DNA of 52,450 nt, taken from positions 1-52,450 of IMG/VR virus record IMGVR_UViG_3300017909_003089, one strand, 5' to 3'. Origin of the DNA: a virus. Lineage: Duplodnaviria; Caudoviricetes. The position numbers were made by a program, and so were the translations under genes. The notes below the pieces were generated by a model. That model did not search any database, was not told where the DNA came from, and saw only the letters and a program-made list of their open reading frames with translations. Positions 3,421 through 43,734 of this stretch are shown one piece after another (the first letter of the stretch is position 1; every line of letters begins with the position of its first letter).

Positions 3421-3706
3421 TTCCTCCTCTTTTATTTCTCTTCTTTTTTTCATTCTCTTTATATTCTAAAACAACATTTACTTTTTGTTGTAAACGTATC
3501 ATATCTTGGTCCAACATTCTTACTTGGTCAATAACTCTGATTAATTGGAGATGCATCTTTTCGATTTGTGGGTCAATTTCTTCATTAATAAATTTATATA
3601 CAAAGTATACGAAATAACCTAATCCTACAACCATTACCACAGGAAATCCATAATCTTGGATTAGGGTAACAAGTGTAAAATCATCTTGCGTTAATGCTAC
3701 GTCCAT
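3404..3706 (-). CDS. Small membrane protein with coiled coil (paralog-like of 3708-4004)
   Basis: One TM helix after LIQDYGFP, then a heptad region. Confidence 0.7.
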   Translation of the reverse strand: MDVALTQDDFTLVTLIQDYGFPVVMVVGLGYFVYFVYKFINEEIDPQIEKMHLQLIRVIDQVRMLDQDMIRLQQKVNVVLEYKENEKKKRNKRGGNDGKT

Positions 3707-10344: not shown

Positions 10345-10635
10345 TTAGCCTCTAATATCAACAGTGGCAATTGGTGCAACAATAGCTGGACATCTTTTTT
10401 TGTTTTTAAATATTAACCAAGTAGCATTCTTTGCTTCTCTTCTATTTAAAACATCATCACCATTCTTATCTGCATGGTCAAACATTTTTCCAACTTTTTG
10501 ACAACCGCCCTGAATCAACTCAGCTTCACTTATTACATTATCTGCATTAAAATCAAATTTTCTCATTCTCCAATCATCAGCAAAAGCATCTGATATAAAC
10601 AATGAAAGAACTGATACACTTAATAGTTTTTTCAT
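10345..10635 (-). CDS. Secreted EF-hand protein
   Basis: Signal peptide; loops DFNADNVISEAE and DKNGDDVLNRRE. Confidence 0.75.
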   Translation of the reverse strand: MKKLLSVSVLSLFISDAFADDWRMRKFDFNADNVISEAELIQGGCQKVGKMFDHADKNGDDVLNRREAKNATWLIFKNKKRCPAIVAPIATVDIRG

Positions 10636-13734: not shown

Positions 13735-14157
13735 TTATTTTAAGTTTTTTACTGCATTGCCACCAATACGACAATTAATAATACCATTATAGTATTTATC
13801 ATCAATAAGCACATCTCTATCGAACTGTTCTTTAGCTTCCATATAAGCACATTCACCTTTTGTTTTACATAAGTGAAGTATTTCTCTATGAAACATTTCA
13901 TGGCCTTGTGTATCTACTTCTTCTTTAAGATGTACGTTACTCCCGTAATAATTTTTCCAATCTGACTCAACAAGTAATCTTTTTCTACGTTTTCTTGTCT
14001 TTGTTATTGGTAATGTTTTCTTGCTCCAAAAGAATTTCTTTCCGATATACATTCGTCCTGTCGCTCTGTTCGTTATCATGTAAACAAAACCGTATACGTC
14101 TTTGTGATCGTAGTCTTTCGGCATTTCGTATTTTTTGCCTTTGTAAACCCATTCCAT
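13735..14157 (-). CDS. GIY-YIG endonuclease
   Basis: GFVYMITN...YIGKK, YYGS, YYN. Confidence 0.85.
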   Translation of the reverse strand: MEWVYKGKKYEMPKDYDHKDVYGFVYMITNRATGRMYIGKKFFWSKKTLPITKTRKRRKRLLVESDWKNYYGSNVHLKEEVDTQGHEMFHREILHLCKTKGECAYMEAKEQFDRDVLIDDKYYNGIINCRIGGNAVKNLK

Positions 14158-14318: not shown

Positions 14319-14537
14319 TTATCCCAATTGTTCTTTTAGTTTATCGTATCCACCAATCTTTTCGCCATTGTATATAATCTGTGGAAACGTTCTCGCTCCT
14401 GGAAAAGTTTCTAACATCTCTTCTCTACCGAAGTCTGTACCTAATTGTTTGTATTCGTATTCTAATCCTTTTTGCTCACATAAGCTTTTAGCCATATCGC
14501 AAAATGGACACATTGTTTTTCCGTAAATAGTAATCAT
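14319..14537 (-). CDS. nrdC: Glutaredoxin
   Basis: CPFC, TFPQI, IGGY. Confidence 0.93.
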   Translation of the reverse strand: MITIYGKTMCPFCDMAKSLCEQKGLEYEYKQLGTDFGREEMLETFPGARTFPQIIYNGEKIGGYDKLKEQLG

Positions 14538-14965
14538 AATGTCTCCTCAATAAATTTACCAATTGTTTCAATATCTTGTTCTGATAACATTCCAGCTTGA
14601 GCCCACATAGTAGAACTCATAGCTCCAACTTCACCTCTATTTTTGTATGTAGTTAATCTATCTATAATGTATTCAGATGATTGACCTGCTAGTGCAGGAA
14701 ATGCTCCCATGCCTTGACCTTGCTGACCATGACATGCTGCGCATCCAGCCCATAGACCTCTAATAGAACTAAAAGGATCTTCATTAGCTGCAGCCTGTTT
14801 CATCTGTTCAATTTCTACTACAGTACCATTGAGTTTGACATATTCTTCATAGCATTCACCGTAACATCCATGAACTCTATCATACCCTTTGTATTCCAAA
14901 TTATTATATGCCATGGCAATAGTACCTGTCATAAATAAACATATTGTTAATATATATCCTTTCAT
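14534..14965 (-). CDS. Periplasmic monoheme cytochrome c (c553/c4-like)
   Basis: Signal-like N-terminus; CAACH; PALAGQ; distal Met in STMWAQA. Confidence 0.88.
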   Translation of the reverse strand: MKGYILTICLFMTGTIAMAYNNLEYKGYDRVHGCYGECYEEYVKLNGTVVEIEQMKQAAANEDPFSSIRGLWAGCAACHGQQGQGMGAFPALAGQSSEYIIDRLTTYKNRGEVGAMSSTMWAQAGMLSEQDIETIGKFIEETL

Positions 14966-25845: not shown

Positions 25846-27213
25846 CTAAACTTTAGCGGCAAGGTCTTTATCGGCGCCTCCCCATGTACCTTTTGATTTG
25901 GTAACAAAAGAATTCACTCTTGCTAATCCCCATTGTACAGGCGTAGTACCTGGTCTGTGTCCAGTTCTCCAAGCAGCTACTCCTCTATCAAAAACTTTTT
26001 TCAAAATACCATAAGGCATACCAGACTTATCAGCTTTCTTTCTCAATGCCTTTTTAGTATCTTGTTCTGTGACTGTAAAATCTTCAAATGTTAAATGTTC
26101 TGCCATCTCACCATACATTTGTTTAAATTTCTTAGTATGTTTTGATGGTTTAGTTTTAGCTGTTGCATCGCCTGGTGCTGGCTCATATGCCTTTGGATTA
26201 TCATCGTCCATTTTAGACTTTTTGGCAAAATGCGCAGCTCTTTTTGTTTTCGTTGATTTTGTTTTTATACCTTTATAATATCCAGCAGGCTGTGATCCTT
26301 TTCTATCTTTAATATCAGGGTCTTGTTTAACTTCTGAAAACGGAGTTGCTTTTAAATAATTCTTCAACGTTTTCTTAGTACCTACTTCATTATATTCTGT
26401 AATTTTTTCAACAGCATCTAACCAATATCTCTTTTTATTGTTATCTGTTTCTACGATTACATAGTTAGCACCGCAATGTGCGATTACACCTTCTTCATTT
26501 GATTCTTTAATGCGAACTTTATTTCCTGTTGTATATAGACTTCCTTCAATATACTCTTCTCTTGTTTCTGATACTGGAGATAATTGAATATGTTTTCTAA
26601 ATGAGTTCTTTTCTTTTAAACCCATTCCTTTTCTAACCGCATTAAATAAATCATTAGGATGGTATCCTGAAGGCAATCCTTTAGAAAAGCCTTCAAGATC
26701 ATTTTGTTGAGCGGCCATTCGCATCTTTGAAGCTGACATCCCAGTTGCGCCATCTGCATCTGGGTCCCTGTCTCCTGCGCTAACTATATTAATAGCACCT
26801 TGGAATTCGTAAAAACCGTGTCTTGATTTGACACCGTTGTATTTGTTTAGTAATATATCAAATTCTTTTATTCTATCTGACCCTGCAACCATAGTTACTT
26901 TAGTAAACCCTTGGTCATATAATTTAACTGCAATATCTAAAACAGTTCTTACATCTTTATCCGACATGACATTTCGTGCATGTTTTGGAAACATTTTTCT
27001 TAAGAATTTGATTTTATCTTTGAACTGAAGTGGATTCTTTTTGCTATCCACTGATCTTGATGCATATATACGATATGCTCCTCCACGGCTGATTTTTTTC
27101 AGAGTATCAAATAATTTTTCATGACCAATCGTTGGAGGATTAAATCTTCCAAATACGAAAGTAACTTCTTTTGTTGACTCTGTTAAAAAATCGCTAAATG
27201 ATTTAACTGACAT
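25846..27213 (-). CDS. Cytidylyltransferase-like (HIGH superfamily) protein with basic C-terminal modules
   Basis: FGRFNPPTIGH, AGSDR, MSASKMR; C-terminal RGVAAWRTGHRPG module. Confidence 0.8.
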   Translation of the reverse strand: MSVKSFSDFLTESTKEVTFVFGRFNPPTIGHEKLFDTLKKISRGGAYRIYASRSVDSKKNPLQFKDKIKFLRKMFPKHARNVMSDKDVRTVLDIAVKLYDQGFTKVTMVAGSDRIKEFDILLNKYNGVKSRHGFYEFQGAINIVSAGDRDPDADGATGMSASKMRMAAQQNDLEGFSKGLPSGYHPNDLFNAVRKGMGLKEKNSFRKHIQLSPVSETREEYIEGSLYTTGNKVRIKESNEEGVIAHCGANYVIVETDNNKKRYWLDAVEKITEYNEVGTKKTLKNYLKATPFSEVKQDPDIKDRKGSQPAGYYKGIKTKSTKTKRAAHFAKKSKMDDDNPKAYEPAPGDATAKTKPSKHTKKFKQMYGEMAEHLTFEDFTVTEQDTKKALRKKADKSGMPYGILKKVFDRGVAAWRTGHRPGTTPVQWGLARVNSFVTKSKGTWGGADKDLAAKV

Positions 27214-27233
27214 TTATTTCCTCGGTATCCCAT

Positions 27234-28469
27234 TTAGTTGGGGTTATCCCAACCTTTTATAATATCTTTGCTAAAGTTGTTTGTAGAAAATTCCATTCTA
27301 TCCACAAGCTTAACAGCACCACCTTCTAATCGGTCTATTGCCACAAAGCCTTCAACGCCGGTGACCTTAAACCCATTTTTAGTTTTTACAAACGTATCAA
27401 TTTTAGATAGTTTGTTTAATTTATTTATAATAATTAATTTGCTATCGATGACTAAATTCTGCAAATCAAAGATTAATTTTAAATTTTTTATGTTTTCTTT
27501 ACTGAAAAATGATAGTAATGCATCTCTTTTTTGAATTTGAGCATCTTTACCTTTTGGGGTACTTCTTTTATCAATTTCCTTTTGGTATCTATTACTTACA
27601 AACATAACTAATCCTGTAGCATGAGATTTAGTATTTGTAATTCTTTGTCCTTCTCTGACCTTTGTATTATTATATGTATTAATGATTAAATTAAGTTCTT
27701 TATTAGATTCAATCTCTTTTAATACTCCACTAGCAATCTTTTTAAATATTTTTCCTGCATCTGATAGCTTTTTAGAAATCTCTAAGTTATCATCTCTAGT
27801 TAAAGTAGCTGTCCCTGATAAATCTCTTAATGTTGCGTCGACCATCCATACCTTTGAGCTTTTTCGTAATTTAGGAACAATCTCTTTTCCAAACTCTGCA
27901 TTCATATTTTCAAATGTTCCACCTGAATATGTTGTATGCCATACTATTCCTATTTCAGCTTTACTTATTTCTTTACCTATTTGGCTTTTAGCTGGGACTG
28001 CATAAACAATCGTATTAGGATGGAAAGTAATATGTGTTTCACCATTAATCTTTTCTTTCTTTAAATCTTTTTTCTCAAACATAAAGTCGCCCTGGATAAC
28101 ACCTTTAATTCCAAGACCTTTAAGATTATCAAATGCCATTTTTAATTTACGATTTAAATCACCAGATGTATCAGCATCAATATCTTCATGATTTTTATAT
28201 ACCTTTGGATTGGCATTAAATATACCTTTCTTTGCTACAAAGAATTTTCCATCTCTTGGATCCTCTCCAGCAAATACGGCGGGGGCACCGTCCCACTTGA
28301 CAGTAATGTCCATTGGTGCTTTTGCATTACCGCTCAACATATCCCTCATTGACCTAAGCGCTAGGATTGCCTGGCGTGCCCCCTTAACTCCACCGTCCAA
28401 GATTAAGTCCTCAATATGAGTCATATGAGTGTTCTTGGATTCGGCTAAATAGTTATTAAAATTTTTCAT
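27234..28469 (-). CDS. Conserved T4-like protein with ligase/nucleotidyltransferase-like motifs
   Basis: TVKWDGAP (KxDG), QGD, EGFV, KLVDR. Confidence 0.65.
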   Translation of the reverse strand: MKNFNNYLAESKNTHMTHIEDLILDGGVKGARQAILALRSMRDMLSGNAKAPMDITVKWDGAPAVFAGEDPRDGKFFVAKKGIFNANPKVYKNHEDIDADTSGDLNRKLKMAFDNLKGLGIKGVIQGDFMFEKKDLKKEKINGETHITFHPNTIVYAVPAKSQIGKEISKAEIGIVWHTTYSGGTFENMNAEFGKEIVPKLRKSSKVWMVDATLRDLSGTATLTRDDNLEISKKLSDAGKIFKKIASGVLKEIESNKELNLIINTYNNTKVREGQRITNTKSHATGLVMFVSNRYQKEIDKRSTPKGKDAQIQKRDALLSFFSKENIKNLKLIFDLQNLVIDSKLIIINKLNKLSKIDTFVKTKNGFKVTGVEGFVAIDRLEGGAVKLVDRMEFSTNNFSKDIIKGWDNPN

Positions 28470-29088
28470 AATCGATAAAATCCATTAATTTATTTGCAAG
28501 TAATACACCTGCGTTATAATCAGCTGGGTAATGTAACCCTGCTATTACTCTTCCATATCCACATTTATTTGCCATAGCTTCTAAGTTAGATTTATGGTTA
28601 GAATATTTTCTAGCATAATGTAATGCTACGACTAATGGTTGAACGGTATGTCCTGAAGGATAAGAAGGTGTTTTTGATGTTTCTGTTTTAAACCTTCTAA
28701 GCTCTAAATTATAGTACGCAGCAACTTGATATGGTCTTGGTCTATTAAAATGATTTTTGTAGTGTCTGACAATCGGTACACATTGATCTTCTATGTATTC
28801 AATTACAGCATTATCATATTCTAAATCATTATTATCCATATATTTTTTTATGAAATATGATGCATCAGTATCACATAATTTATATTCTTCAATTTGTTCT
28901 TCTGTCGCTGAATGACATATTTCAATTACTTTATTAACTTCTACCTTTTCCGGGGGCGGAGGGGGTAGTTGTATTGTTTGCCATCCATCTCTAAAGATTT
29001 TAATATTATTATATTTTGCAGGCTTTAGCTCATCTTGTGGTTTATAAACTAATATATCTTCATTAATAAATTGTTTTAATCTACGCAT
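28456..29088 (-). CDS. PAP2-superfamily phosphatase
   Basis: K..FNRPRP, SYPSGH, RVIAGLHY. Confidence 0.85.
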   Translation of the reverse strand: MRRLKQFINEDILVYKPQDELKPAKYNNIKIFRDGWQTIQLPPPPPEKVEVNKVIEICHSATEEQIEEYKLCDTDASYFIKKYMDNNDLEYDNAVIEYIEDQCVPIVRHYKNHFNRPRPYQVAAYYNLELRRFKTETSKTPSYPSGHTVQPLVVALHYARKYSNHKSNLEAMANKCGYGRVIAGLHYPADYNAGVLLANKLMDFIDYEKF

Positions 29089-32350: not shown

Positions 32351-33736
32351 TTATACTTTAAAGTCAGCGAAAGAGTCTGGTTGTTCTCTTTCACCGAACT
32401 TATTTATTGGTTTGTCGGGGGTCATATCAGACATAATATCTGATTGAGCCGACTCTTCCACATCATATAGTTTCATGCGGGAACGATCCACGCCAACCAC
32501 GAACCTTCGATATTTGGTTGGATCGTTATACCTATTCTTCAATTGCTTTACCAATAATTGGCCTAACTCTTCAAGTTCCTCTGTTGAAATAAGAGCAAAC
32601 ATTAAGTCAGCCGTTGCTGGTAAACCAAAAGATTCAGATGTATCCTCAAGTCCGACATCAGTGTTACTGAACCCTGACCTTGTGGTCTGAGTTGCCGATA
32701 CTATTGGAACATTGAATTCCACAGCTAAACCACGAAGTTCTTCCGCGATAGCTTTAATGTATGTATAACTATTTATACTTCCGCCCATACCTCGCATACG
32801 CGATGAAGCACAAATATTTAAATAATCTATATAAATTATGTCTGGTTTAAAGTTTTTCTTGAGTTTTAGCTCATTGAGTAGTGCTCGGAAGTGGCCTGTA
32901 TGAGCTGAACCTGTTGGATATTCTTTTACAATAAGTTTACCAATTGCACCTTTTGCTATCTTTCCAATCTTATCATCAAAGACTCTTTTAGGTAAAGATG
33001 ATAATTGTTCAATAGGTAAATTCATAAGGTTAGCATCTATTCTTTCCGCTATTCTTTCTTCAGCCATTTCCAATGTAATGTATAAAACATTCTTACCTTG
33101 CTCTAGAACTGATGAGGCGCAATGACACATAAACAAAGACTTACCCACACCAGTCCCAGCAAGAGCGATATTTAAAGTTTTATTTGGAAGACCACCTTTT
33201 GTAATTTTATTGAAGTAATCTAAATCAAAAGGTATTCTATCTTCTTTTAAATTATAAAAATCAAACCTTTCAGAAGAATTATCAATATAGTCATGACCAA
33301 TAGCTTGGTCAAAACTAACGCCAAGAGCATCTGACAATATCTCAGGTATAGCACCTTCACTTCTTTTAGTATCCTTTTTATCGATAATCTGAATAGATTC
33401 CATTATAGCATTATAGACTGCTCTTTCCCTACACCAGTTTTCAGATTCTTTAATTAAGTAATCAGTATCAACATCTGACTTTTCTTGTATTTCTTCAATT
33501 AGTCTTGATGCTTGATTTAATATTTCTTCATGTGCATTTATTTTTTTCAGCTCAAGGTCCAATACTTTTGCTGTTGGTAATTTATTATGTGCATTAACAA
33601 AACTAACTATTAAGTCAAATACTGTTCTATGAGAACCATCAAAGTATTCCTTTTTAATATAAGGAATTACTCTTCTGCAATATTCTTCGTTATTGAGAAG
33701 ATGGTTCAGTATGTGTGTCGGTAGTGTCTGATTCAA
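32351..33736 (-). CDS. gp41: Replicative DNA helicase (T4 gp41)
   Basis: AGTGVGKS Walker A, IYIDY, ATQTTRSG, KQLKNRY. Confidence 0.96.
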   Translation of the reverse strand: MNQTLPTHILNHLLNNEEYCRRVIPYIKKEYFDGSHRTVFDLIVSFVNAHNKLPTAKVLDLELKKINAHEEILNQASRLIEEIQEKSDVDTDYLIKESENWCRERAVYNAIMESIQIIDKKDTKRSEGAIPEILSDALGVSFDQAIGHDYIDNSSERFDFYNLKEDRIPFDLDYFNKITKGGLPNKTLNIALAGTGVGKSLFMCHCASSVLEQGKNVLYITLEMAEERIAERIDANLMNLPIEQLSSLPKRVFDDKIGKIAKGAIGKLIVKEYPTGSAHTGHFRALLNELKLKKNFKPDIIYIDYLNICASSRMRGMGGSINSYTYIKAIAEELRGLAVEFNVPIVSATQTTRSGFSNTDVGLEDTSESFGLPATADLMFALISTEELEELGQLLVKQLKNRYNDPTKYRRFVVGVDRSRMKLYDVEESAQSDIMSDMTPDKPINKFGEREQPDSFADFKV

Positions 33737-34040
33737 TATTATTTCCTATCTTTGCTTTATCGTTTTCTAAGTTATTTATAATGATATGTCTTAACACATC
33801 ACCCATGTAATTTTTAAAGTGTTCACTTTTCTCTAGCTCATCAACGGTATGTTCTGCTGGGTCAGCTACTTGAAATGTAAACCCTAAACTAGCCATATCT
33901 AGTTCAGGGCTTTCTTTTATTGATACTGTGCCATACATTACGATAACGTCTTTATATTCTCCAGTTTTAAATCTTACACCTTGTATAGGATGTTTAGGAT
34001 TATCTACAAAAGCGTAGTCGTTTTCAGTAATATCTGACAT
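33690..34040 (-). CDS. Hypothetical protein at the T4 gp40 position
   Basis: Lies between uvsX and gp41. Confidence 0.65.
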   Translation of the reverse strand: MSDITENDYAFVDNPKHPIQGVRFKTGEYKDVIVMYGTVSIKESPELDMASLGFTFQVADPAEHTVDELEKSEHFKNYMGDVLRHIIINNLENDKAKIGNNIESDTTDTHTEPSSQ

Positions 34041-35089
34041 TATTCTTCCTCAAGATCCAAATCAATTTCAAGTAATGGTTTGTGACCAATAGAATAATAT
34101 GTTTTAATGAATTCTTTAAAGTCAGTTTCTTTAATAATTGGATCCCAGAACTTTTTAGTTTTAGTATCTTTTTCTCTAACTTTAGTATCTTCAATCTCTC
34201 CAGTTTCTCTATCGACTCTAGCATACCAACCAACATTTGGTTTGGTTACATATCCACCAGCTAGAGCAACATCTAGTAATCCACCATAATTTGCGATACC
34301 ACCTTCCCATGTTACTTCAACTGGGATTTTAGATTTTTCTTTTACAAACCTTGATTTCTCTACATTAATTATAAATTGATAACCTGATACTTCAGTACCT
34401 TTCTTCTGCTGACGTCTTCCAATAATCCAAATGTTATCAGCTGAATAATAAATCCCTGTACCACCAGAAACAATTGATTTAGGAAATAACCCAATCTCTT
34501 GATATGTATGGTTAACAGCGAGTAAAGGGACGTTCTTCATCGTAAGATAAGGAGTGACCATTCGGAACAATCCCTTTAACGCTTTTGCTCTCGACATGTC
34601 AGCAACTGACTTTTCATTGAGAGCATCTTCCAATTCTTTCTTAGATGCTAAGTTACCAATAGAATCAATAACGATTACTACTTTGTCTCCTCTTTCAATA
34701 TTTTCTAACTGACCAACTAAATCAAACTTTAATTGCTCAACATCAGTTATAGGAGTATGTAATACTCTACTTGTGTCAATACCAAATGACTCAAAGTATT
34801 TTTGTGGTGAACCAAACTCTGAATCATAGAATAGCATAACAGCATCTTCATATTTGTTAAGATAAGCTGCGCCCATAAGTAACGCAAAACTTGTCTTAAA
34901 GTGTTTTGATGGACCAGCTAAAACAGTAAGTCCTGATGATAGCCCTCCGTCCATATCTCCTGATAACGCTACATTGACCATAGGTACATCTGTAGCAATC
35001 ATATCCTTTTCGGCGAATAGCGGAGAATCAGATAGTACATCAGTACTTTTGATTTTACTATTCTTTTTTAATTTATCCATTATAGACAT
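34040..35089 (-). CDS. uvsX: UvsX RecA-like recombinase
   Basis: AGPSKHFKT, YDSEFG, IDSIGNLASKKE. Confidence 0.96.
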   Translation of the reverse strand: MSIMDKLKKNSKIKSTDVLSDSPLFAEKDMIATDVPMVNVALSGDMDGGLSSGLTVLAGPSKHFKTSFALLMGAAYLNKYEDAVMLFYDSEFGSPQKYFESFGIDTSRVLHTPITDVEQLKFDLVGQLENIERGDKVVIVIDSIGNLASKKELEDALNEKSVADMSRAKALKGLFRMVTPYLTMKNVPLLAVNHTYQEIGLFPKSIVSGGTGIYYSADNIWIIGRRQQKKGTEVSGYQFIINVEKSRFVKEKSKIPVEVTWEGGIANYGGLLDVALAGGYVTKPNVGWYARVDRETGEIEDTKVREKDTKTKKFWDPIIKETDFKEFIKTYYSIGHKPLLEIDLDLEEE

Positions 35090-35352
35090 TATCTTCTACT
35101 CCTGCCTCTTGGGCTATTTAATTGATTTTCCATTCTCAATGCTTTGAGATGGCGACTTCTTGCTTCAGCCTTTTTTCTTTTTCTTTTGGCTGTAGGCTTT
35201 TCATAAAATTCTCTTTTACGAACTTCTTGAACTATCCCAGCTTTTTCACATTGCTTTTTGAACTTTCTTAAAGCTACATCGAAAGGCATTGGCCTTGCTG
35301 GGCGTTTATCTTTTGGATGCCTCTTACGAGGTCTTAAATCTACTGACGGCAT
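35089..35352 (-). CDS. rpsU: Ribosomal protein bS21 with basic N-terminal extension
   Basis: [32 protein letters not shown]. Confidence 0.92.
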
Positions 35353-35383
35353 AGTCACTCCTATTTTTAAACATATATACTAT

Positions 35384-35412
35384 ATTATACCATAAATTCA
35401 TCTAGTTGTAAA
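35384..35412 (-). promoter_or_regulatory. Sigma70-type early promoter for bS21-uvsX-gp41
   Basis: TTTACA-17nt-TATAAT overlapping the end of the upstream gene. Confidence 0.8.
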
Positions 35413-36620
35413 TGGTTCTTTTCATATTCATACACTTTTCTTTTATTATCTTGTAGTAAATATTCTGTGTCAATTAAATCTAATCTACCATCAAAATAAA
35501 GCTTTATTTGTTCCATCATATCTTGAGCTGTTTTTACAGGTACATTTTGACATATATGATTATATGAACCTCTAGGATTAATTAATTCAAAATCTTGAGG
35601 TAAATACATTATACTTAACATTTCTCTGAAAGTTAAATATCTATCTTCTACTGGATGTACTAAGCATGATGGTAAGTGTCCAACGAATGCTCCAATATAA
35701 TCATTAGGTAAAGTAAGAGTTCTACGCATAGTAAATCCTCCAGCCTTTTCTTTGTCTGACATTCTTTTTAATACTCTATGCCATCTCTTAGCACCATCAT
35801 CATCTCTTTTTTCTAGGTCAGAAATAATATCATCCCAAGCTTCAAACTTAGTACTTCCCATTCTATCTAAAATGGTATATAAATTTTCATTTGGTTTTTC
35901 TAGTGATTCTACAAATTCTTTATGTGTCATACCATGTTTATCTAATATCCAAGCATATACAGTATCATCAGATGGTTTATTTTGATTATAAACTTCTGAC
36001 ATAGGATCACCTTTTTTATTTTTTACTGATTTAAGTAAATCCTCAATTCTTTGATGCGGTCTATGGATATAATTGAATAAAGGAACTTTATTACCTTTCC
36101 AAAAGAAATAGAATGTTCTATCTCTGATTTGTGAATACCCTTGAATTTTAGATTTTGTTTTATATATTGAAAGTGTATATCCATGTTTCTTACCAATTTC
36201 TCTTAGCTTTTTAACAACTGGGATTCCAGTGCTTTGTGCTAATCTTGGTGCGTTCTCTCCCCAAAATACTTTAGGTTTAATATTACCTAATACATATTCA
36301 GCTGATTCATACATCCAATTATTTGTTGGATTATCTCCAGACGATGCTGGACTTAATGATGATAAACCTGCACAAGGACATACAGTATTAACTACATCAA
36401 CCTTCTTTGCTTTATACTTCGGATTTTCATCAAGCAATACATAATCGCCTTCCCAACCTTTTTTATTTAAATAATTAAGGTAATGAGCGTCATTCTTTTG
36501 AAAGTCAGAATATGATAATACCCACTCTGGGTGCTGTTTACCTAGGGCTTCAGATATACCAATACTCTCACCTCCTATCAAAGGTACTATTGAACCATAA
36601 GTTATATTTTTGCTATCCAT
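35385..36620 (-). CDS. Atypical C5-cytosine methyltransferase-fold enzyme
   Basis: CPCAGLS (motif IV), GENAP (VI), QIRDR (VIII), R.LTFRE (IX), QNVP (X); motif I degenerate (IVPLIGG). Confidence 0.8.
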   Translation of the reverse strand: MDSKNITYGSIVPLIGGESIGISEALGKQHPEWVLSYSDFQKNDAHYLNYLNKKGWEGDYVLLDENPKYKAKKVDVVNTVCPCAGLSSLSPASSGDNPTNNWMYESAEYVLGNIKPKVFWGENAPRLAQSTGIPVVKKLREIGKKHGYTLSIYKTKSKIQGYSQIRDRTFYFFWKGNKVPLFNYIHRPHQRIEDLLKSVKNKKGDPMSEVYNQNKPSDDTVYAWILDKHGMTHKEFVESLEKPNENLYTILDRMGSTKFEAWDDIISDLEKRDDDGAKRWHRVLKRMSDKEKAGGFTMRRTLTLPNDYIGAFVGHLPSCLVHPVEDRYLTFREMLSIMYLPQDFELINPRGSYNHICQNVPVKTAQDMMEQIKLYFDGRLDLIDTEYLLQDNKRKVYEYEKNHLQLDEFMV

Positions 36621-37041
36621 TTTTTACTCTCTCCCTTAAATCACTTGATGAAAACGAATGTCTTCTTTTATTGTAGTGTATTGGACATAGTCCTTTACCT
36701 GTGTGTTCTACATCTTTATATTCTTCACCTACAATACGAATGTCTGGATTAATTGTTAAAATCATATCAATAATTTCTTCTTCAGTCGTGAATGGTATAA
36801 CTTCGTCCACATAACGACATGCTGATAGTTGTACATACCTTTCAAAAGGACTTTGTATAGGTTTATTTTTACTGTCAGGTCTATCGACTGTTGGGTCAAT
36901 TAATAATCCTACTACTAAATAATCACACATTGCTTTTGCTTCTTGTAACATTACAATATGCCCTGCGTGAAATAAGTCAAAGGTAGAACATGTAAATCCG
37001 ACCTTAGCGTCTTCAGGTAATTTCGTTTTATCTAAGAACAT
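36613..37041 (-). CDS. TagD-like cytidylyltransferase
   Basis: TFDLFHAGH, ERYVQL, VDEVIP, SSSDLR. Confidence 0.88.
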   Translation of the reverse strand: MFLDKTKLPEDAKVGFTCSTFDLFHAGHIVMLQEAKAMCDYLVVGLLIDPTVDRPDSKNKPIQSPFERYVQLSACRYVDEVIPFTTEEEIIDMILTINPDIRIVGEEYKDVEHTGKGLCPIHYNKRRHSFSSSDLRERVKNG

Positions 37042-38078
37042 TCGTTTCTCCTCCAAAAATCAGCTTCCGCTTGTTGTACTTTATTAAGTATGAATTGTTT
37101 ATCTGGATGATATTTGTATACTCTAATTATTTCTGACTTAACTAAAATATTAATATCTTCTTCATCAAAATTATTATATGCACATAACGCTCTCATAGCT
37201 AAACAAGTCATATCATCATATTGATTAATATATAGTGATGCTATAAATTTAGCAACATCAAGTTCAGTACATCCAAATGTATCTAAAATAGGGTCAATCA
37301 AATATAATTCATCGTGTTTAAATAACATATTTTTAACACCAAAGTCACCATGTGAAAACGTTGGTTGTAAGTCTAGGTCTTTTAATCTTTGCAATGTGTC
37401 AGTAAATTCTGGTATATTTCCAGATAATTCAATATGTCCTTCAATTCTATTTACATAATCATCAAATGTGTAGCTATTTTCTAATACATCCATATTTGAC
37501 ATTCTATCTAATGATTCTTGTATTAATCCTAATGCTCTATATGTAAAATTATTTAAATAAAATTCATCATGGTCAATATATTCCATTGTAATTGTTTGAC
37601 CTACAACTCTATCAATTCTTGGAACATTTAAATAACCATTTACATAAGAGAACCACGCATGAGCTAGGTGAGCATTATTAGCAGTCTTATGTACTAGTTT
37701 ACCATCAGTATAAATGTCTGACCCTGATAAACCACCTTCAAGTTCTCTAATATCTGTAAGTATAAAATCTTCGGGAGTAATACCTTTATCATCAATATAG
37801 TAAGCACCTAATGGTTTATCAAAAGATAACATATTATAATTTACATTATGATTATCTAACCAATCTCTAATTTGGTCACCATACTTTTCTTCCGCCTCAT
37901 CTCTTGTTTTACATGATATTGAACCTCTAGCTGTAAAAATATCTACAGTCCAACCTTCTTTACTAAGTTTATTTAATTTATTAATTAAATCCATATTTGG
38001 CATTGCATTTTCCCAATCTCTATTTTTGGTAAATGCTATTGTGTCGTCAAAATCTACTATAAGTCTTTTATTGTGCAT
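37032..38078 (-). CDS. HAD phosphatase fused to APH/choline-kinase-like phosphotransferase
   Basis: N-terminal VDFDDT/FTARG/YIDDK; C-terminal GGLSG, HGDFGVKN, LIDP. Confidence 0.85.
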   Translation of the reverse strand: MHNKRLIVDFDDTIAFTKNRDWENAMPNMDLINKLNKLSKEGWTVDIFTARGSISCKTRDEAEEKYGDQIRDWLDNHNVNYNMLSFDKPLGAYYIDDKGITPEDFILTDIRELEGGLSGSDIYTDGKLVHKTANNAHLAHAWFSYVNGYLNVPRIDRVVGQTITMEYIDHDEFYLNNFTYRALGLIQESLDRMSNMDVLENSYTFDDYVNRIEGHIELSGNIPEFTDTLQRLKDLDLQPTFSHGDFGVKNMLFKHDELYLIDPILDTFGCTELDVAKFIASLYINQYDDMTCLAMRALCAYNNFDEEDINILVKSEIIRVYKYHPDKQFILNKVQQAEADFWRRNECS

Positions 38079-39327
38079 AAGTTTTTAATTCTTCCATAAT
38101 TTTATTATTTAAATATGAACCATCATAGTATTCATCTTTAAGTAAGTTATCAAGTAAATCTCTAAGTTCTTGGTAAGCTTTTGGTTTTTCTTCTAAGAAT
38201 TTAATTTTATTAAATAAATCTTGAGAATCTTTTACCCTAATAAATTCAGGTACTTTAAGATTATCTTGTTCATCATATGTTGGATGTAAGAAAGGTATAA
38301 TACCATAGTGTGCCATTTCCCATACCTTAGCTGTTACCCAACCTTTTTTAATTGGAATACAAAATGTGTACTTTACTCTTGGTAACATTTGCATTAATTC
38401 ATTAAACTTTTTTGGTCCTTTAAATCTTTTATCATCACCTATTGTGTCAGGATTCCATTGACCATAAATGTCAACATCTTCTACATGGTCAAGTATATAT
38501 TTCTTTAAGTCAGGATATCTTGATGGTTTACCTTCATTACATACAATCATAAATTGTATATCTTTACCATCAGATGGTTTTTCTTCACCAAAGAATGATT
38601 CTAAACTATTAGGTACTTCCTCTAACATTTCACCACGTTTTTTACCAATAAGAAATGTTGTTTCTAAGGCATCATAACTACATTCAATATTATGTTCTTG
38701 TCTTGTTGGATCATCATACCCTGCATAGTTTTTATGTACTACGGATTCATTATACTGTGAAAATATTTTTCTTGGTGGATTCCATAAGTCTCTCATTTTA
38801 CCTGGGTATAATCTAGGGTCGTTTAATAGCATTATCCATGGAATATCTTTATAATGATTAAGGTAATATATTGGTGGACCCGCATATCTTCTTTGCATAT
38901 CAAGTGGTTTGGCTAGTGTTGTATGGTCGTTCATTAATTTAGAATGACCATGAATATTTGAAGTAGCTGACATACCCATCATAAAAACACCAACATCTAC
39001 TTTATATTTAGGATCTTTAATTAATACATCTTCCATAAATTCTTGTCTATCACTAGCTGGATGATTACGACTCCATTTACCAGATTGTTTCCAATTAACA
39101 AAATGTTCCCATGCATTTGTTAAATTACCATGTTCATTTATTTCTTGTTGTCTGTTTAAAGGTAACCTATCATAATCTGATGGACATACTAAAACAAACT
39201 CATGCTCTGGATTACTACGAATTAAATGTTCAAATAATATTGGTGCTTCGTTATCTCCGCCTACAGCACCCCATCGATTACTATCAAATAATACTGACTT
39301 ACCTATTTTACCTACACCTATTTTCAT
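38068..39327 (-). CDS. T4 beta-glucosyltransferase-like (GT-B) DNA glycosyltransferase
   Basis: LNDPRL resembles BGT TDIRL; WVTAKVWEM resembles BGT FITLRVWE; located in the gp42 cluster. Confidence 0.65.
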   Translation of the reverse strand: MKIGVGKIGKSVLFDSNRWGAVGGDNEAPILFEHLIRSNPEHEFVLVCPSDYDRLPLNRQQEINEHGNLTNAWEHFVNWKQSGKWSRNHPASDRQEFMEDVLIKDPKYKVDVGVFMMGMSATSNIHGHSKLMNDHTTLAKPLDMQRRYAGPPIYYLNHYKDIPWIMLLNDPRLYPGKMRDLWNPPRKIFSQYNESVVHKNYAGYDDPTRQEHNIECSYDALETTFLIGKKRGEMLEEVPNSLESFFGEEKPSDGKDIQFMIVCNEGKPSRYPDLKKYILDHVEDVDIYGQWNPDTIGDDKRFKGPKKFNELMQMLPRVKYTFCIPIKKGWVTAKVWEMAHYGIIPFLHPTYDEQDNLKVPEFIRVKDSQDLFNKIKFLEEKPKAYQELRDLLDNLLKDEYYDGSYLNNKIMEELKTYAQ

Positions 39328-39572
39328 ATAAAGCTTTTCCATAAGTTATTTAGTAGGAATAATAATCCCATACCGTTTAAAAGTATTAGTGCTCTATCAT
39401 TCCAAATGAGTGATACCCATAACCATAAACCTATACCTACAATACTTAAATATAAATCAATCTGAGCATATTCTGATACACCACGAATTGACATTGCACA
39501 TAACACAATAATTGAAGCTACCCATTTTAAATACCAATCTAATGTGTATTTTGGATTACGGGGCTCGTTCAT
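39324..39572 (-). CDS. Small three-TM membrane protein
   Basis: DWYLKWVAS...WNDRALILLN. Confidence 0.7.
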   Translation of the reverse strand: MNEPRNPKYTLDWYLKWVASIIVLCAMSIRGVSEYAQIDLYLSIVGIGLWLWVSLIWNDRALILLNGMGLLFLLNNLWKSFI

Positions 39573-39993
39573 ATTCTACTCCTGCTTCTGCGAATAATTC
39601 TTGAGTTAACATATTACTTTCTAACCATCTTACAGGTACGTCTTGTATTGCTTTCCAAACAACTCTTTTTATACCTACTTGAATAATACCTTTGGCACAT
39701 TCACTACATACAGGTAATCCATATATGTACATTGTTGCACCATCTAATTCTGTACCGAAATATCCTGCATTGTAAATACAATTCATTTCAGCATGAACTA
39801 CATACTTATATTTTAAATCTCTATCTCTTAATCTATCTCTTGAATCTAATATCCCTCTAGGAAATCCATTGAATCCTTGTGCAATTGTTCTTTTATCTTT
39901 TACAGCGATACAACCAATTTTTCTACTTGGATCTTTTGACCAACTTGATACTTCTTTTGCGACTTCTAAAAATCTTTTATCCCACTTATTCAA
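39556..39993 (-). CDS. cd: dCMP deaminase
   Basis: SKDP, GFNGFPRG, HAEMN, PVCSEC. Confidence 0.92.
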   Translation of the reverse strand: MNKWDKRFLEVAKEVSSWSKDPSRKIGCIAVKDKRTIAQGFNGFPRGILDSRDRLRDRDLKYKYVVHAEMNCIYNAGYFGTELDGATMYIYGLPVCSECAKGIIQVGIKRVVWKAIQDVPVRWLESNMLTQELFAEAGVEYERAP

Positions 39994-40234
39994 ATAATAA
40001 ACTCCATTTCATTAATTTGTTTTTCTTTTCTTTCATACGGTCTTCAATTTGTTTATCAGTAACATAGTTATTCATTTTAAGAATTTCAATCATCATCATT
40101 ACATCGCCGATTTCATCTTGTAAATTTCTTATGTATTTAGTATCACCTTTTGTTCTGATTACTTTACTACATGCTTGAATGAGTTCACCGCATTCTTCCA
40201 TTGTAATTACTAAAGCCTCTTCGTGTTTTTTCAT
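39986..40234 (-). CDS. MazG-like NTP pyrophosphohydrolase
   Basis: MEECGELIQACSK...DEIGD. Confidence 0.8.
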   Translation of the reverse strand: MKKHEEALVITMEECGELIQACSKVIRTKGDTKYIRNLQDEIGDVMMMIEILKMNNYVTDKQIEDRMKEKKNKLMKWSLLFE

Positions 40235-40956
40235 TTTACTAAATCGAAGTGTCTCTCATACACATGTAGGTTTTGCACCTGCCAATAGATATATCCTAGT
40301 TCAGTTTTAATACCATTATAATATAAGTCAGTTTGTAACTGTTCTTGGACATGTCTTTGCCATGCATAATCATTTCTATAACCAAAGATCACATCATTAC
40401 TTCTCATTTGAACTGTAGCATGAAGCATATTATCTCTAATGTAATATGTAACAGCATTAGTGCAAATGAAATCGTTTTTACCATTTTCTTTGTATTCTTT
40501 CCATATACTTGGTCTTTGATAAACCATACACGCTCTACGTGATGTAGGGTTCTTAAGTAAATCATTCAATACTTTATCGTATTGCTTGTGATATTTACCT
40601 GAGTAAATTAGTTTACCATAATTAGAATTGATTTCACCATGTTTGTTTGCTGTATATTTCCAAGCTTGTGGTGGTTCTTTTTTAAATCCTTTATGCTGTA
40701 AGTATACACCATCTTCACCAGGTTTATTATATATGTCATTAATATTTGTTGACTTAGAGTTATACCAATCAATCTCTGCTTTAATATACTCTTCATTCGG
40801 AGTACCAAAGATAGCAGGTTTATCTGCAACAAAAGATGCACCTAGTATTTCAATAGTTTTTACACCAGTCCTATCTTGTACAAAATTACCAGCTTCTAAA
40901 TGTTTCTTAAAGACATCTCTTATGTCTGCTGTGTTATTCACTTGATACATTATCAT
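40231..40956 (-). CDS. gp42: dCMP hydroxymethylase (T4 gp42 homolog)
   Basis: DRTGVKTIEILGASFVAD, GEINSNYG, DFICTN, MRSNDVIFGYRNDYAW, LHVYERHF match T4 gp42, including the cytosine-specifying Asp. Confidence 0.9.
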   Translation of the reverse strand: MIMYQVNNTADIRDVFKKHLEAGNFVQDRTGVKTIEILGASFVADKPAIFGTPNEEYIKAEIDWYNSKSTNINDIYNKPGEDGVYLQHKGFKKEPPQAWKYTANKHGEINSNYGKLIYSGKYHKQYDKVLNDLLKNPTSRRACMVYQRPSIWKEYKENGKNDFICTNAVTYYIRDNMLHATVQMRSNDVIFGYRNDYAWQRHVQEQLQTDLYYNGIKTELGYIYWQVQNLHVYERHFDLVK

Positions 40957-41299
40957 CTCCTTTTAGACCAATATTATTATTTGAATTGAATGCATCTTTG
41001 TTTAAGTCTTGACCTGGAATACCATGTCTGCAATATGCAACAAAGAATGATGCATAATTAATTAAATCTTTTGCTGAATCTTCAAGTGATTCAAAGTTTG
41101 GTTCATAATCACTACTTTGCATAGCTTCCATAACGGATGCCATTCTTAGCATTTTTGCATGCATAATGTCATGAATGGTTGTGATACCATTCGGATAATA
41201 GTCAGCTTGAGTTATTTTAGAATTTGGATTCTGATAGTCGTTAGACTTTTGTGTTTGTAACTCTGCGCATTCTTGTAGCACTCTCAAAGATTCTTTCAT
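40934..41299 (-). CDS. Nucleotide-modification-associated alpha-helical protein
   Basis: KSNDY...ESLEDSAKDLINYASF. Confidence 0.7.
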   Translation of the reverse strand: MKESLRVLQECAELQTQKSNDYQNPNSKITQADYYPNGITTIHDIMHAKMLRMASVMEAMQSSDYEPNFESLEDSAKDLINYASFFVAYCRHGIPGQDLNKDAFNSNNNIGLKGDDNVSSE

Positions 41300-41321
41300 A
41301 ATTTCTCCATAATATAACTAT

Positions 41322-41350
41322 ATTATACCACAGTTTTGGTATAATGTAAA
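41322..41350 (-). promoter_or_regulatory. Sigma70-type early promoter heading the modification operon
   Basis: TTTACA-17nt-TATAAT with TGTGG. Confidence 0.85.
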
Positions 41351-41358
41351 TAGCTAAT

Positions 41359-41775
41359 TTAGCCTTTGTAAATAATACCTTGTTCATTCAAAGCTTTTCG
41401 ATTCCATAAGTGACCTTGCTCCGTATCATCTTTAGATTGACCTAAGTATGGCACAGCATGGAATTCATCAATTTGTTGTTGGTTTATACTATACTTAGAA
41501 TCTCCAATGAATAACTCTCCAAGTATTCTACCAAACTTACCTTTATCATGTGATACCATTTGGATTTCTTTACCATCTAATATTTTAATTAAGTTAGCCT
41601 TTGATGCTTTACCATAAAACTTTTCTTCTAAGTTTCTTGTTCTACTTTCTGGCGTATCAATACCCATCATTCTAACTCTTTGCTTTTTATAAACCATTCC
41701 GAATCCTAAATCAACATCAACATCAACTGTGTCTCCGTCAACGACTCGTGTAACTTCTACTTTATATCTATACAT
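41359..41775 (-). CDS. Thermonuclease (SNase-like)
   Basis: RVVDGDT, GIDTPE, KFGRILG. Confidence 0.9.
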   Translation of the reverse strand: MYRYKVEVTRVVDGDTVDVDVDLGFGMVYKKQRVRMMGIDTPESRTRNLEEKFYGKASKANLIKILDGKEIQMVSHDKGKFGRILGELFIGDSKYSINQQQIDEFHAVPYLGQSKDDTEQGHLWNRKALNEQGIIYKG

Positions 41776-42432: not shown

Positions 42433-43346
42433 AAGTTATTTCTAAACACAAATTCAATTGCCCTCTCTGCCTCCTTATACATATCACGTTTTAAATACCA
42501 ATTACCTGTATCACCATCTAAATCTCTACATAAGTATTCGACCTCTTTAGCTGTAATTGGATAACCTTTGCTCATTGCGTTACCAGCGGTAGATACCATA
42601 ATCTGATACATCTTTGCATACCACCCAGTATCTGTAATTGCTTTATATTCTTCTACTTGTTTTTTATTTACAAACGGACAATCTTGATAACCTGTCCAAG
42701 AATAGTTTGTATTATTGAGTTGACCTTTTCTATGTTCGATTAAACCTTGTTTAATTGCTTCAGGTAATCTATCAAAGAAGTTTTCGTTTGGAACAACATA
42801 AGGGTGAGTATCCATAAGTAAGTTAGGATCCATAATTTCACCATCATGTGAGAATATAAAATTAAAACTGTTTTCATATTTTGCTGGTATGTAATACATA
42901 CGACTCAAATCTTTTGTTTGAGCATCTGCTATATCGCCAATCTCTTTATTAAGAGCATACCAAAAGTGTTTAATTTTTTCTTTATCAACAAATGTTGTAA
43001 GTGGAAACACTAATCTGAACTTTGGCTTTTCTTTGGTAGATGATGCAGTAGAATAACATACATATCGATATTTAGAATATTTCTCTTCGATATTTTTCAT
43101 ATCACCTTCATAATCATCAACGTCAAGAATACCGAATCCACCCCAACCTGTTACATTATCATTACCTCTTGTAGTATCAGGTATGTAAATAGCTGGGCTG
43201 ATTAGTGGTGCATCCTTTTTAGTTGGATATTTTTTAGATTCTGATAACTTATATAGAATAGCTTCAAACTCATCAAATGAGTTGTAATCCATTCTTTTAT
43301 TTGTTTTGTTATCGTATATCGAATCAAATATCGTTAAACTTACCAT
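42429..43346 (-). CDS. PrimPol/AEP-like primase
   Basis: ILDVDD (DxD), YSTASS, KFRLVFPL, DLSRMYYIP; helical C-terminal domain. Confidence 0.7.
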   Translation of the reverse strand: MVSLTIFDSIYDNKTNKRMDYNSFDEFEAILYKLSESKKYPTKKDAPLISPAIYIPDTTRGNDNVTGWGGFGILDVDDYEGDMKNIEEKYSKYRYVCYSTASSTKEKPKFRLVFPLTTFVDKEKIKHFWYALNKEIGDIADAQTKDLSRMYYIPAKYENSFNFIFSHDGEIMDPNLLMDTHPYVVPNENFFDRLPEAIKQGLIEHRKGQLNNTNYSWTGYQDCPFVNKKQVEEYKAITDTGWYAKMYQIMVSTAGNAMSKGYPITAKEVEYLCRDLDGDTGNWYLKRDMYKEAERAIEFVFRNNL

Positions 43347-43734
43347 GATTTCCTTCGTGTGATGGCGCCTCCCAACCTTCTGGTTTAACCAAGTCAGGTA
43401 CACCTAATGGGTTTGGCCTGGTTGGTTTTACTCCTACTTCTTTTGCCATGTTTGCTTTAAGAACTTCGTCCCATGCTTTATATGGGTCAACTCCGAACGC
43501 ATCAAGAGTACCAATAGCGACAACACATAAATCAATTAATCCATCAACTATTTCTTCAGGATCTTTTATTGCATGTGCTTCTCTAGTTTCATCTAGTTCT
43601 TCTTGTAAAAATCCAATACGAAACTTTAGGAATGCTCTGAGTTTTTCGGGATCATTACGATTATCCCATACCCAATCCCTAGTCTTGTATTTAGTTTGCA
43701 TATCATGTATATCTTTTACCCAGTCTTTACTCAT
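43324..43734 (-). CDS. All-alpha NTP pyrophosphohydrolase (candidate dCTPase/dUTPase)
   Basis: QEELDE, EIVDGLID, ANMAK, KPEGW. Confidence 0.8.
   Translation of the reverse strand: MSKDWVKDIHDMQTKYKTRDWVWDNRNDPEKLRAFLKFRIGFLQEELDETREAHAIKDPEEIVDGLIDLCVVAIGTLDAFGVDPYKAWDEVLKANMAKEVGVKPTRPNPLGVPDLVKPEGWEAPSHEGNHGKFNDI

Follow-up and report, generated by a model that had tools for sequence, protein, structure and literature searches.

What does a protein with the fold of the C5-cytosine methyltransferases (C5-MTases) do in a phage whose cytosine C5 should already be occupied? The question is raised by a 411-residue methyltransferase-like (MT-like) protein encoded in viral record IMGVR_UViG_3300017909_003089, which was analysed whole (52,450 bases, hereafter the window; estimated completeness 29%) and which also encodes a homologue of gp42, the dCMP hydroxymethylase of T4. 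The MT-like protein is best explained as belonging to a clade of the C5-MTase fold that is restricted to phages and accessory to a gp42-dependent modified-cytosine module. That it performs covalent C6 chemistry on the C5-substituted cytosines of the phage, with a non-canonical cofactor or with none, is the reading preferred here, tentatively and at a probability of about 0.4.

Fold, motifs and family signature of the MT-like protein

An AlphaFold2 model built from the alignment of relatives (predicted local distance difference test, pLDDT, 96.1; predicted template modelling score, pTM, 0.93) opens with the usual beta1-loop-helix-beta2-helix-beta3 arrangement and superposes by VIA-align on M.HaeIII (Z 25.8, root-mean-square deviation 3.0, 279 residues aligned), on M.HhaI (Z 25.6, 299 of 327 residues aligned, model residues 2-379 on chain residues 8-325), on the phage carboxymethyltransferase 8YF3 (Z 23.4) and on S. 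pombe Dnmt2 (Z 20.1); among the Foldseek matches listed for the model (about 45 rows), all are C5-MTases, 8YF3 included. The two-domain C5-MTase fold, which the original prediction had read from the sequence, is shown by this model and its comparison with M.HhaI. At the sequence level, the protein matches Pfam PF00145 (DNA_methylase) with E 8.2e-16 and 58.8 bits, where the cut-off is 22, but the match covers profile positions 41-323 of 324 only and leaves out the motif I/II part; with NCBIfam TIGR00675 (dcm) it scores 30.2 bits, below the cut-off of 100.65. A single-sequence search of the PDB gives a best E of only 0.14, and a profile built from residues 1-110 retrieves no methyltransferase from it at E <= 10, its two matches both being unrelated.

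Relatives of the protein number 2525 at E <= 0.001 in 90% clusters, and 729 among 50%-identity representatives (240 of them at E <= 1e-30). The alignment used for all counts below has 122 rows, the window protein and 121 of 150 listed 50%-identity representatives; 21 sequences outside 365-450 residues and 8 with partial or two-stretch matches were left out. Positions were mapped by a family hidden Markov model (HMM) onto M.HhaI, for which residue numbers and roles are assumed here. The residues for base flipping and for attack on C6 are all intact in these sequences: the catalytic Cys83 of motif IV is found in 121 rows, Glu122 of motif VI and Arg166 and Arg168 of motif VIII in 122 each, Gln164 in 120, and Asn359 of motif X in 117. 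The PC, EN and QxRxR motifs, claimed at the outset to be intact, are thus present at residues 80-87, 121-125 and 164-172, and are near-invariant across the clade.

Some clade members are odd in build: P0182 has a C-terminal CXXC zinc finger, P0211 is 1462 residues long with a long low-complexity tail, P0197 lacks the catalytic Cys, and P0138 combines a Gly at position 14 with K-S in motif X.

Conservation of this degree (Cys83 in 121 of 122 rows, Glu122, Arg166 and Arg168 in all 122) argues for catalysis, and bears on the reading that the target is not phage-genome cytosine at all, the protein being either an RNA m5C enzyme like Dnmt2 or a non-catalytic binder of flipped 5-hydroxymethylcytosine (hmC). 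The fold is close to that of S. pombe Dnmt2 (Z 20.1), Dnmt2-type enzymes have all the DNA-methyltransferase motifs, and P0197 has lost its Cys; however, the CXXC finger of P0182 is a DNA-binding one and the operon context is that of DNA modification, which, with the catalytic residues, makes such a role very unlikely.

The cofactor side appears to be rebuilt, with Leu for the first Gly of F-x-G-x-G-G, Ile or Val for its Phe, and no conserved acid after beta-2. When the family profile is aligned to E. coli Dcm (hhalign, probability 53%, E 1.3e-4), V12-P13-L14-I15-G16-G17 falls opposite F-A-G-I-G-G, a pairing with which the six-residue N-terminal offset of the M.HhaI superposition agrees; the same alignment passes over beta-2 of Dcm. 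Within the family, P13 is kept in 121 rows, L14 in 120, G16 in 121 and G17 in 119. After beta-2 (residues 33-36 in the model), positions 37-39 hold no conserved acid: position 38 is Ser in 38 rows, Pro in 21, Asp in 19, Lys in 13 and Thr in 9, and position 39 is Ala in 42, Pro in 29, Gly in 18, Asp in 9 and Glu in 8; N43-D44 is conserved near beta-2, in a stretch where the sequence alignment is unreliable. In motif X, Q358-N359 (120 and 117 rows) lies opposite the G-N of M.HaeIII and M.HhaI in the family HMM, so that the Asn is kept and the Gly is exchanged for Gln. The motif I and motif X departures are a signature of the family, neither chance nor a private mutation.

On the side of the target base, the family HMM places A84 opposite HhaI Gln82 (PCQ) and A124 opposite Val121 (ENV), so the two positions flanking C5 would hold smaller residues; A84 is found in 99 rows (Ser in 15, Gly in 5, otherwise Thr or Asn) and A124 in 117. 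W102, opposite HhaI L100, is kept in 103 rows, and an acid at position 64 (D/E64) in 99. The IVPLIGG and QNVP variants singled out by the original prediction are found at the places it gave (Pro13 in 121, Leu14 in 120 and Gln358 in 120 of 122 rows), and the remodelling of the cofactor side proves wider than it had claimed, taking in the lack of a conserved acid after beta-2, the Trp at the HhaI L100 position, Ala84 and Ala124. Conservation drops from 0.53-0.59 in the catalytic core to 0.28-0.30 in the recognition part (residues 181-320).

In class I methyltransferases, the first Gly of the loop that binds S-adenosylmethionine (SAM) packs against the methionine part of SAM. The main rival, possible though on balance doubtful, is that the protein is an ordinary SAM-dependent C5-methyltransferase with a drifted N-terminal part, which methylates leftover cytosines or specific sites as a second protective layer alongside glycosylated hmC. 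Motifs IV, VI, VIII and IX and the motif X Asn are intact, conservation extends to G16-G17, D/E64 and Trp102, M.HhaI and M.HaeIII can be superposed over the whole fold (Z about 25.6-25.8), and the recognition domain is variable, like that of sequence-specific enzymes; yet Leu14 is invariant at the first SAM-loop Gly, no conserved motif II acid is seen and the motif I Phe is lost.

The clade is found in phages: a search of the ESM Atlas returns phage PF00145 clusters only, a genome-collection scan with the single protein returns two contigs of metagenome-assembled genomes only, both looking like phage DNA, and 8 of 50,697 phage records contain a relative.

Probable cytosine replacement and the decoration operon

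The gp42-like ORF (open reading frame) gives a weak match to the Pfam thymidylate synthase (TS) family (55.3 bits) and has its best phage matches in T4-type gene 42 proteins (about 49-50% identity); aligned, it shares 51% identity with T4 gp42, against 26% with the RB69-type protein of phage Mizar and 18% with the 'ThyA' of cyanophage S-TIM54. It keeps the Asp of 'YRND' / 'RND' at the position of ThyA N177, which is the mark of dCMP-using homologues (10.1101/2024.12.05.627091). RB69-type homologues lead to 5-hydroxy-dCMP (PMC13326640); this 5-hydroxycytosine pathway is ruled out for the window by an identity of 26% against 51% to T4 gp42. A TET-dependent pathway was set aside: there is no Tet_JBP (PF12851) match among the 69 window ORFs in Pfam, and none in five related records, where the controls are equally silent and the evidence is accordingly weak.

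From its likeness to T4 gp42, the product of the enzyme would carry a hydroxymethyl and not a methyl group, and the phage can be taken to replace its cytosine with hmC, presumably in full, so that its DNA should contain little unsubstituted cytosine. The original statement that gp42 fills C5 stands in this respect, given the 51% identity and the dCMP-specifying Asp. In T4, it is established that such pre-replicative replacement leaves little plain cytosine; it would leave an ordinary methylase scant substrate. Because plain cytosine should be scarce and the first SAM-loop Gly is invariably Leu, standard SAM-dependent methylation is probably not performed.

On the preferred reading, the enzyme would act after replication on the phage's own C5-substituted cytosines (hmC or a derivative): Cys83 would attack C6 to form a Cys83-C6 adduct, the rebuilt site would use a non-canonical cofactor or none, and the C5 substituent would be edited or exchanged, with no sequence-specific 5-methylcytosine (5mC) laid down. 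The identity of substrate and product is the least certain step. In one version, itself rather doubtful, SAM methyl transfer is lost and the Cys-C6 adduct edits the 5-hydroxymethyl group of hmC, either by exchange of the hydroxyl for another nucleophile or by removal or replacement of the one-carbon unit. The SAM-free chemistry to which the original prediction had appealed is in print: M.HhaI with formaldehyde hydroxymethylates GCGC, and engineered M.SssI couples thiols to 5hmC, both in vitro (PMC7176277).

The enlargement of the site by Ala at the Gln of PCQ would also suit an enzyme that transfers a group to unsubstituted cytosine from another or a bulkier donor, be it a CmoX-like SAM analogue or, for hydroxymethylation at the DNA level, formaldehyde or methylene-tetrahydrofolate. 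Marine phages have natural C5-carboxymethyltransferases (PMC12783734), of which 8YF3 is a structural neighbour (Z 23.4), and M.HhaI makes hmC from formaldehyde in vitro (PMC7176277). However, the window protein has VCPC and Asn359 where CmoX has SPPC and an Arg at HhaI N304, the fold has no known folate-binding feature, and no CmoA match is found for the sole class I methyltransferase ORF (5603-6319) or the other scanned ORFs (NCBIfam for 14 window ORFs, Pfam for 69) of a window that covers about 29% of the genome; a transferase of this kind is quite unlikely. Carboxy-SAM, named as a possible donor in the original prediction, is not supported in view of the same features; the CmoX-type reading was rejected, given VCPC, Asn359 and the fact that no window ORF scanned matches CmoA.

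The MT-like gene is the last, overlapping member of an hmC-decoration operon (Table 1). The order is cd, the 82-residue membrane protein, the GT-B glycosyltransferase, the HAD-kinase protein, the nucleotidyltransferase and the MT-like gene, followed after 26 nt by bS21 and uvsX; the successive overlaps from cd to the MT-like gene are 17, 19, 11, 25 and 8 nt, which supports the placement of the gene in an operon with the GT-B, HAD-kinase and nucleotidyltransferase set. A scan for promoters and terminators over 33500-41500 gives no excess over shuffled sequence (51 vs 47.2 and 4 vs 2.4), so that the operon borders are those drawn from the gene overlaps. The 424-residue protein has no Pfam match; its model (pLDDT 80.5) has a GT-B fold, with T4 beta-glucosyltransferase as best Foldseek match in the PDB (1qkj, E 7e-7, template modelling scores 0.50/0.58) and T4 alpha-glucosyltransferase also among the matches. 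With the activation genes next to it, the window thus encodes a sugar-activation set and a DNA-glucosyltransferase-like enzyme immediately upstream of the MT-like gene. Directly downstream of the latter lies bS21 (PF01165, E 2.7e-19; 35089-35358, minus strand), which overlaps uvsX by 1 nt.

Table 1. Features of the MT-like gene, its operon and the cytosine-replacement genes, in window coordinates.
Feature	Description	Position	Strand
MT-like protein	411 aa, C5-cytosine methyltransferase fold, 'PLIGG' clade	35385..36620	-
Motif I variant	I-V-P-L-I-G-G, residues 11-17	36570..36590	-
Motif IV	V-C-P-C-A-G-L-S, residues 80-87; catalytic Cys83, Ala84 at the Gln of canonical PCQ	36360..36383	-
Motif VI	G-E-N-A-P, residues 121-125; Glu122 invariant, Ala124 at the Val of canonical ENV	36246..36260	-
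Motif VIII	Q-x-R-x-R (Q164, R166, R168); QIRDRTFYF, residues 164-172	36105..36131	-
Motif IX region	H-P-x-E-D-R-x-L-T-x-R-E	35622..35657	-
Motif X variant	C-Q-N-V-P, residues 357-361 (Q358, N359)	35538..35552	-
Nucleotidyltransferase	cytidylyl/adenylyl-transferase-like, 147 aa; overlaps MT-like start by 8 nt	36613..37056	-
HAD-kinase protein	HAD phosphatase + kinase-like, 348 aa	37032..38078	-
GT-B glycosyltransferase	424 aa; best PDB fold match T4 beta-glucosyltransferase	38068..39342	-
Membrane protein	82 aa; DUF6552 in homologues at related loci	39324..39572	-
cd	dCMP deaminase	39556..39993	-
gp42-like protein	putative dCMP hydroxymethylase, TS homologue, 241 aa, Asp at ThyA-N177 position	40231..40956	-
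MazG-like protein	NTP pyrophosphohydrolase, candidate dCTPase	43324..43734	-

The wider gene set of the window (G+C 28-35%, every sizeable gene on the minus strand) is that of a marine T4-like myophage, with gp43 polymerase, gp44/62 clamp loader, gp45 clamp, RegA, gp41 helicase, UvsX, RNase H and NrdAB for replication and recombination, and with CsgG/CsgF curli proteins, cytochrome c and ribosomal protein bS21 in addition. Curli-type secretion genes occupy 128-3453 (minus strand; CsgG at E 1.8e-49, CsgF, a curlin-repeat protein and a FecR-domain protein); among the replication genes, also on the minus strand, lie cytochrome c (14534-14965), an EF-hand protein (10345-10635) and a SegE-like GIY-YIG endonuclease (13735-14157). 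A second nucleotide-transfer cluster at 25846-29088 (minus strand) has a cytidyltransferase-like protein with DUF5824, a DUF6267 protein (E 3.6e-101) and a PAP2 phosphatase; near the MT-like gene of phage XG4, too, there is a DUF6267 protein (L082:10132-11235).

Linkage to Asp-type TS homologues and dispensability

Close relatives of the locus were collected from 80 viral contigs, which share the order pol, MazG, gp42, cd, a variable stretch of 0.8-5.9 kb, MT-like, (bS21), uvsX and gp41. Both gp42 and cd are present in all 30 close loci with at least 5 kb upstream, and gp42 in 40 of the 48 with at least 3 kb upstream. The variable stretch from cd to the MT-like gene and uvsX (window 36613-39572, equivalents L001-L271) is a swappable DNA-decoration island with at least six cassette types. 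One cassette combines a T4-type alpha-glucosyltransferase (PF11440, E 5.9e-33; 28 loci) with an epimerase and UDP-glucose dehydrogenase; others carry the TET-associated glycosyltransferase (PF20691), the GT-B type of the window or a type like gp306 of phage G, and further contents are a 5-hmdU-DNA-kinase helical domain with an inositol-phosphate-synthase-like protein, UDP-galactopyranose mutase, radical SAM/SPASM pairs and, as one of the six types, the pyridoxal-phosphate-enzyme-like set described below. As to whether the MT-like gene follows the cassette type more closely than the phage backbone does, the two trees (58 de-duplicated loci, FastTree) differ too little to be of use: the MT tree has 14 changes of cassette label and the UvsX tree 18, against a mean of about 34.7 for shuffles on both.

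The association extends to distant members of the clade, 97 loci with proteins 30-42% identical to that of the window. A TS homologue is found in 28 of the 31 such loci with at least 6 kb upstream, and the key position is Asp in all 37 TS ORFs found across the 97. As to the three loci without a TS homologue, two are copies of one phage that has an Asp-type homologue ('CND') 118 kb away, and the third is a fragment, 15% complete. A generic anti-restriction methylase would be expected also in phages without an Asp-type TS, and none is seen among the informative loci, which speaks against the ordinary methylase.

Cultured phages repeat the pattern, so that the MT-like clade and Asp-type TS homologues co-occur in four phage lineages. 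In Pseudoalteromonas phage XG4, a gp42-like gene, a nucleotidyltransferase, a glycosyltransferase-like gene, a gene for a 368-residue protein and the MT-like gene are consecutive. Cyanophage S-TIM54, of a different genus, has its MT-like gene two genes from an Asp-type 'ThyA' ('PLD'). In Bacillus phage G, gp301 (MT-like) lies among gp306, gp309 (sugar-phosphate thymidylyltransferase) and gp310 (HAD), gp306 being an alpha-glucosyltransferase homologue (PMC6024577); about 13 kb from gp301, an Asp-type TS homologue ('PYD') and a dCMP deaminase stand side by side (L088:1111-2157 and L088:31-600), and a true ThyA ('PFN') with DHFR lies elsewhere (L089). From this pairing, C5-modified cytosine is predicted for phage G. 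The P-L-(I/V)-G-G motif is kept in XG4 and S-TIM54, which were both aligned; phage G gp301, 24% identical, falls outside the motif alignment.

In S-TIM54, the 'ThyA' (L081:6117-6959) has its Asp at the ThyA-N177 position, and a 560-residue protein without a Pfam match is encoded between it and the MT-like gene. The enzyme is predicted to act on dCMP, making either the methyl or the hydroxymethyl product. It is more ThyA-like (172.5 bits) and may be a dCMP methylase; topping up 5mC would then make sense (10.1101/2024.12.05.627091), which would favour ordinary methylation.

The link does not hold in reverse without exceptions. Among 40 gp42-anchored loci with at least 7 kb downstream, the MT-like gene is present in 34 and missing in 6, which carry DUF6552, a protein of about 385-416 residues, a pyridoxal-phosphate-enzyme-like protein and one of about 315 residues. 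This MT-less cassette (L244:10796-14145, L236:6870-11078) has no recognisable glycosyltransferase, and L104 (4895-10004) holds relatives of its genes together with an MT-like gene. Its last gene was considered as a decayed methyltransferase and rejected (hhalign probability 0.16%, no PDB match at E <= 1). Given the six loci without it and L104, the MT-like gene is frequent yet dispensable and bound to no single decoration chemistry; dispensability is also what an ordinary methylase would allow.

Strict co-occurrence with an Asp-type TS whatever the cassette, together with dispensability, would be explained as well if the enzyme were a weapon against cytosine-containing host DNA, which by SAM-free C-to-U deamination, crosslinking or damage would feed host DNA breakdown; such a weapon would be affordable only for a phage whose own cytosines are substituted at C5. 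C5-MTases can deaminate their target when SAM is absent, and a remodelled SAM site would favour such cofactor-free side reactions. An ORF of about 115-134 residues adjoins cd in 17 of 47 loci (L045:659-1063, L100:8513-8893 and 15 more); it gives weak matches to the uracil-DNA-glycosylase superfamily (E 0.0004-0.0017, below the cut-off) and is absent from the window. Such a glycosylase-like neighbour would fit a role in host DNA breakdown; however, the window lacks it and there is no direct evidence for the role, small residues at positions 84 and 124 are unnecessary for unsubstituted cytosine, and the gene lies in a modification operon and not among host-takeover genes, all of which makes a host-directed weapon unlikely.

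Several points weigh against covalent editing of substituted cytosine as preferred here. Loss of SAM binding is putative, and the conserved Asn359, G16-G17, D/E64 and Trp102 could hold an adenosyl cofactor; that the pocket is conserved argues for some ligand. To our knowledge, SAM or one of its derivatives serves practically all PF00145 members characterised so far, and T4 manages without a C5-MTase-like gene. Residues 181-320 are poorly conserved, as in sequence-specific methyltransferases, and the gene can be missing altogether, as it is in the 6 of 40 gp42-anchored loci. Full replacement of cytosine by hmC is presumed for this phage, as are the HhaI residue roles and numbers behind the mapping, and the co-occurrence comes mostly from related T4-like phages, whose synteny is inherited.

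Significance and comparison with known systems

The usual view of pre-replicative hmC pathways is that a gp42-type synthase, kinases and group transferases suffice, which leaves a methyltransferase look-alike unexplained; the clade is spread over hundreds of marine phage contigs and three cultured groups (XG4, S-TIM5-like phages and Bacillus phage G). An hmC-directed or SAM-free activity, if true, would be a new enzymatic route to DNA hypermodification and a natural scaffold for hmC-directed DNA labelling; editing of hmC in particular would mean that the 'atypical' laboratory reactions of M.HhaI and M.SssI have a counterpart in nature, the first of its kind, and that gp42-type phages possess a second tailoring route, at the DNA level. 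If the enzyme is a plain methylase, such phages keep unsubstituted cytosines and guard them separately. In either case, abundant ocean myophages carry, between cd and uvsX, a DNA-decoration island whose contents are swappable.

No description of the clade, or of a C5-MTase in gp42-type clusters, was found in a literature search that did not extend to the supplementary files of PMC8256090 and the bioRxiv preprints, where related sequences may be held. A survey of pelagimyophages describes one group with two thymidylate synthases and a dCMP deaminase and reads glycosyltransferases as lipopolysaccharide genes; in its main text, the terms 'methyltransferase' and 'methylase' do not occur (PMC7029224). 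Methyltransferases are listed among the neighbours of ThyS-linked glycosyltransferases, with no further comment in the text concerned (10.1101/2023.12.21.572611). New here are the place of the MT-like gene as the last overlapping gene of the operon and the company that the clade keeps with Asp-type TS homologues.

Among marine-phage enzymes, the closest comparison is CmoX of Synechococcus phage S-B43 (PDB 8YF3), a C5-carboxymethyltransferase with SPPC, an Arg at HhaI N304 and a CmoA partner, in which Phe25, Glu47 and Asp69 contact the adenosyl part, SPPC and Arg350 serve the carboxymethyl group, and the substrate is unmodified cytosine in GC sites (PMC12783734). Both are C5-MTase-fold enzymes of marine phages in a hypermodification setting, with an altered cofactor preference that is putative for the window protein (Z 23.4); the latter differs in having Asn359 and VCPC, in the loss of the Phe and Glu equivalents and in the lack of a CmoA in the window. 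TET-associated phage C5-MTases cluster with DNA glycosyltransferases, epimerases and CTP-transferases, and the 5mC they make is oxidised by TET to 5hmC (PMC8256090; 10.1101/2023.12.21.572611). Some cassettes related to that of the window hold the TET-associated glycosyltransferase (PF20691); here, however, hmC would come from the gp42 homologue before replication.

With M.HhaI, M.HaeIII and Dcm, the window protein shares the fold of both domains, the Pro-Cys, the Glu of ENV, QxRxR, motif IX and the motif X Asn. It differs from them in V-P-L-I-G-G for F-x-G-x-G-G, in the apparent lack of a conserved motif II acid, in PCA for PCQ, ENA for ENV and QN for GN, in the Trp at the L100 position, in a recognition domain that is largely helical, and in the confinement of its clade to phages with an Asp-type TS homologue. 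We know of no natural enzyme dedicated to atypical C5-MTase reactions; the engineered C5-MTases that perform them reportedly carry Gln-to-Ala at PCQ, and Ala84, natural in the window protein, stands at the very residue so engineered in M.SssI and M.HhaI. The likeness to these engineered enzymes would lie in activation through a Cys-C6 adduct without methyl transfer (PMC7176277). Theirs are laboratory reactions of SAM-dependent enzymes, whereas the activity of the window protein is putative.

The hmC module of T4 consists of gp42, dCMP deaminase, dCTPase and alpha- and beta-glucosyltransferase. The window has its counterparts in the gp42 homologue (51% identity), cd, the MazG-like pyrophosphohydrolase and a GT-B protein most like T4 beta-glucosyltransferase; in contrast to T4, its sugar part is a swappable cassette with activation genes of its own, and the MT-like gene travels along with it.

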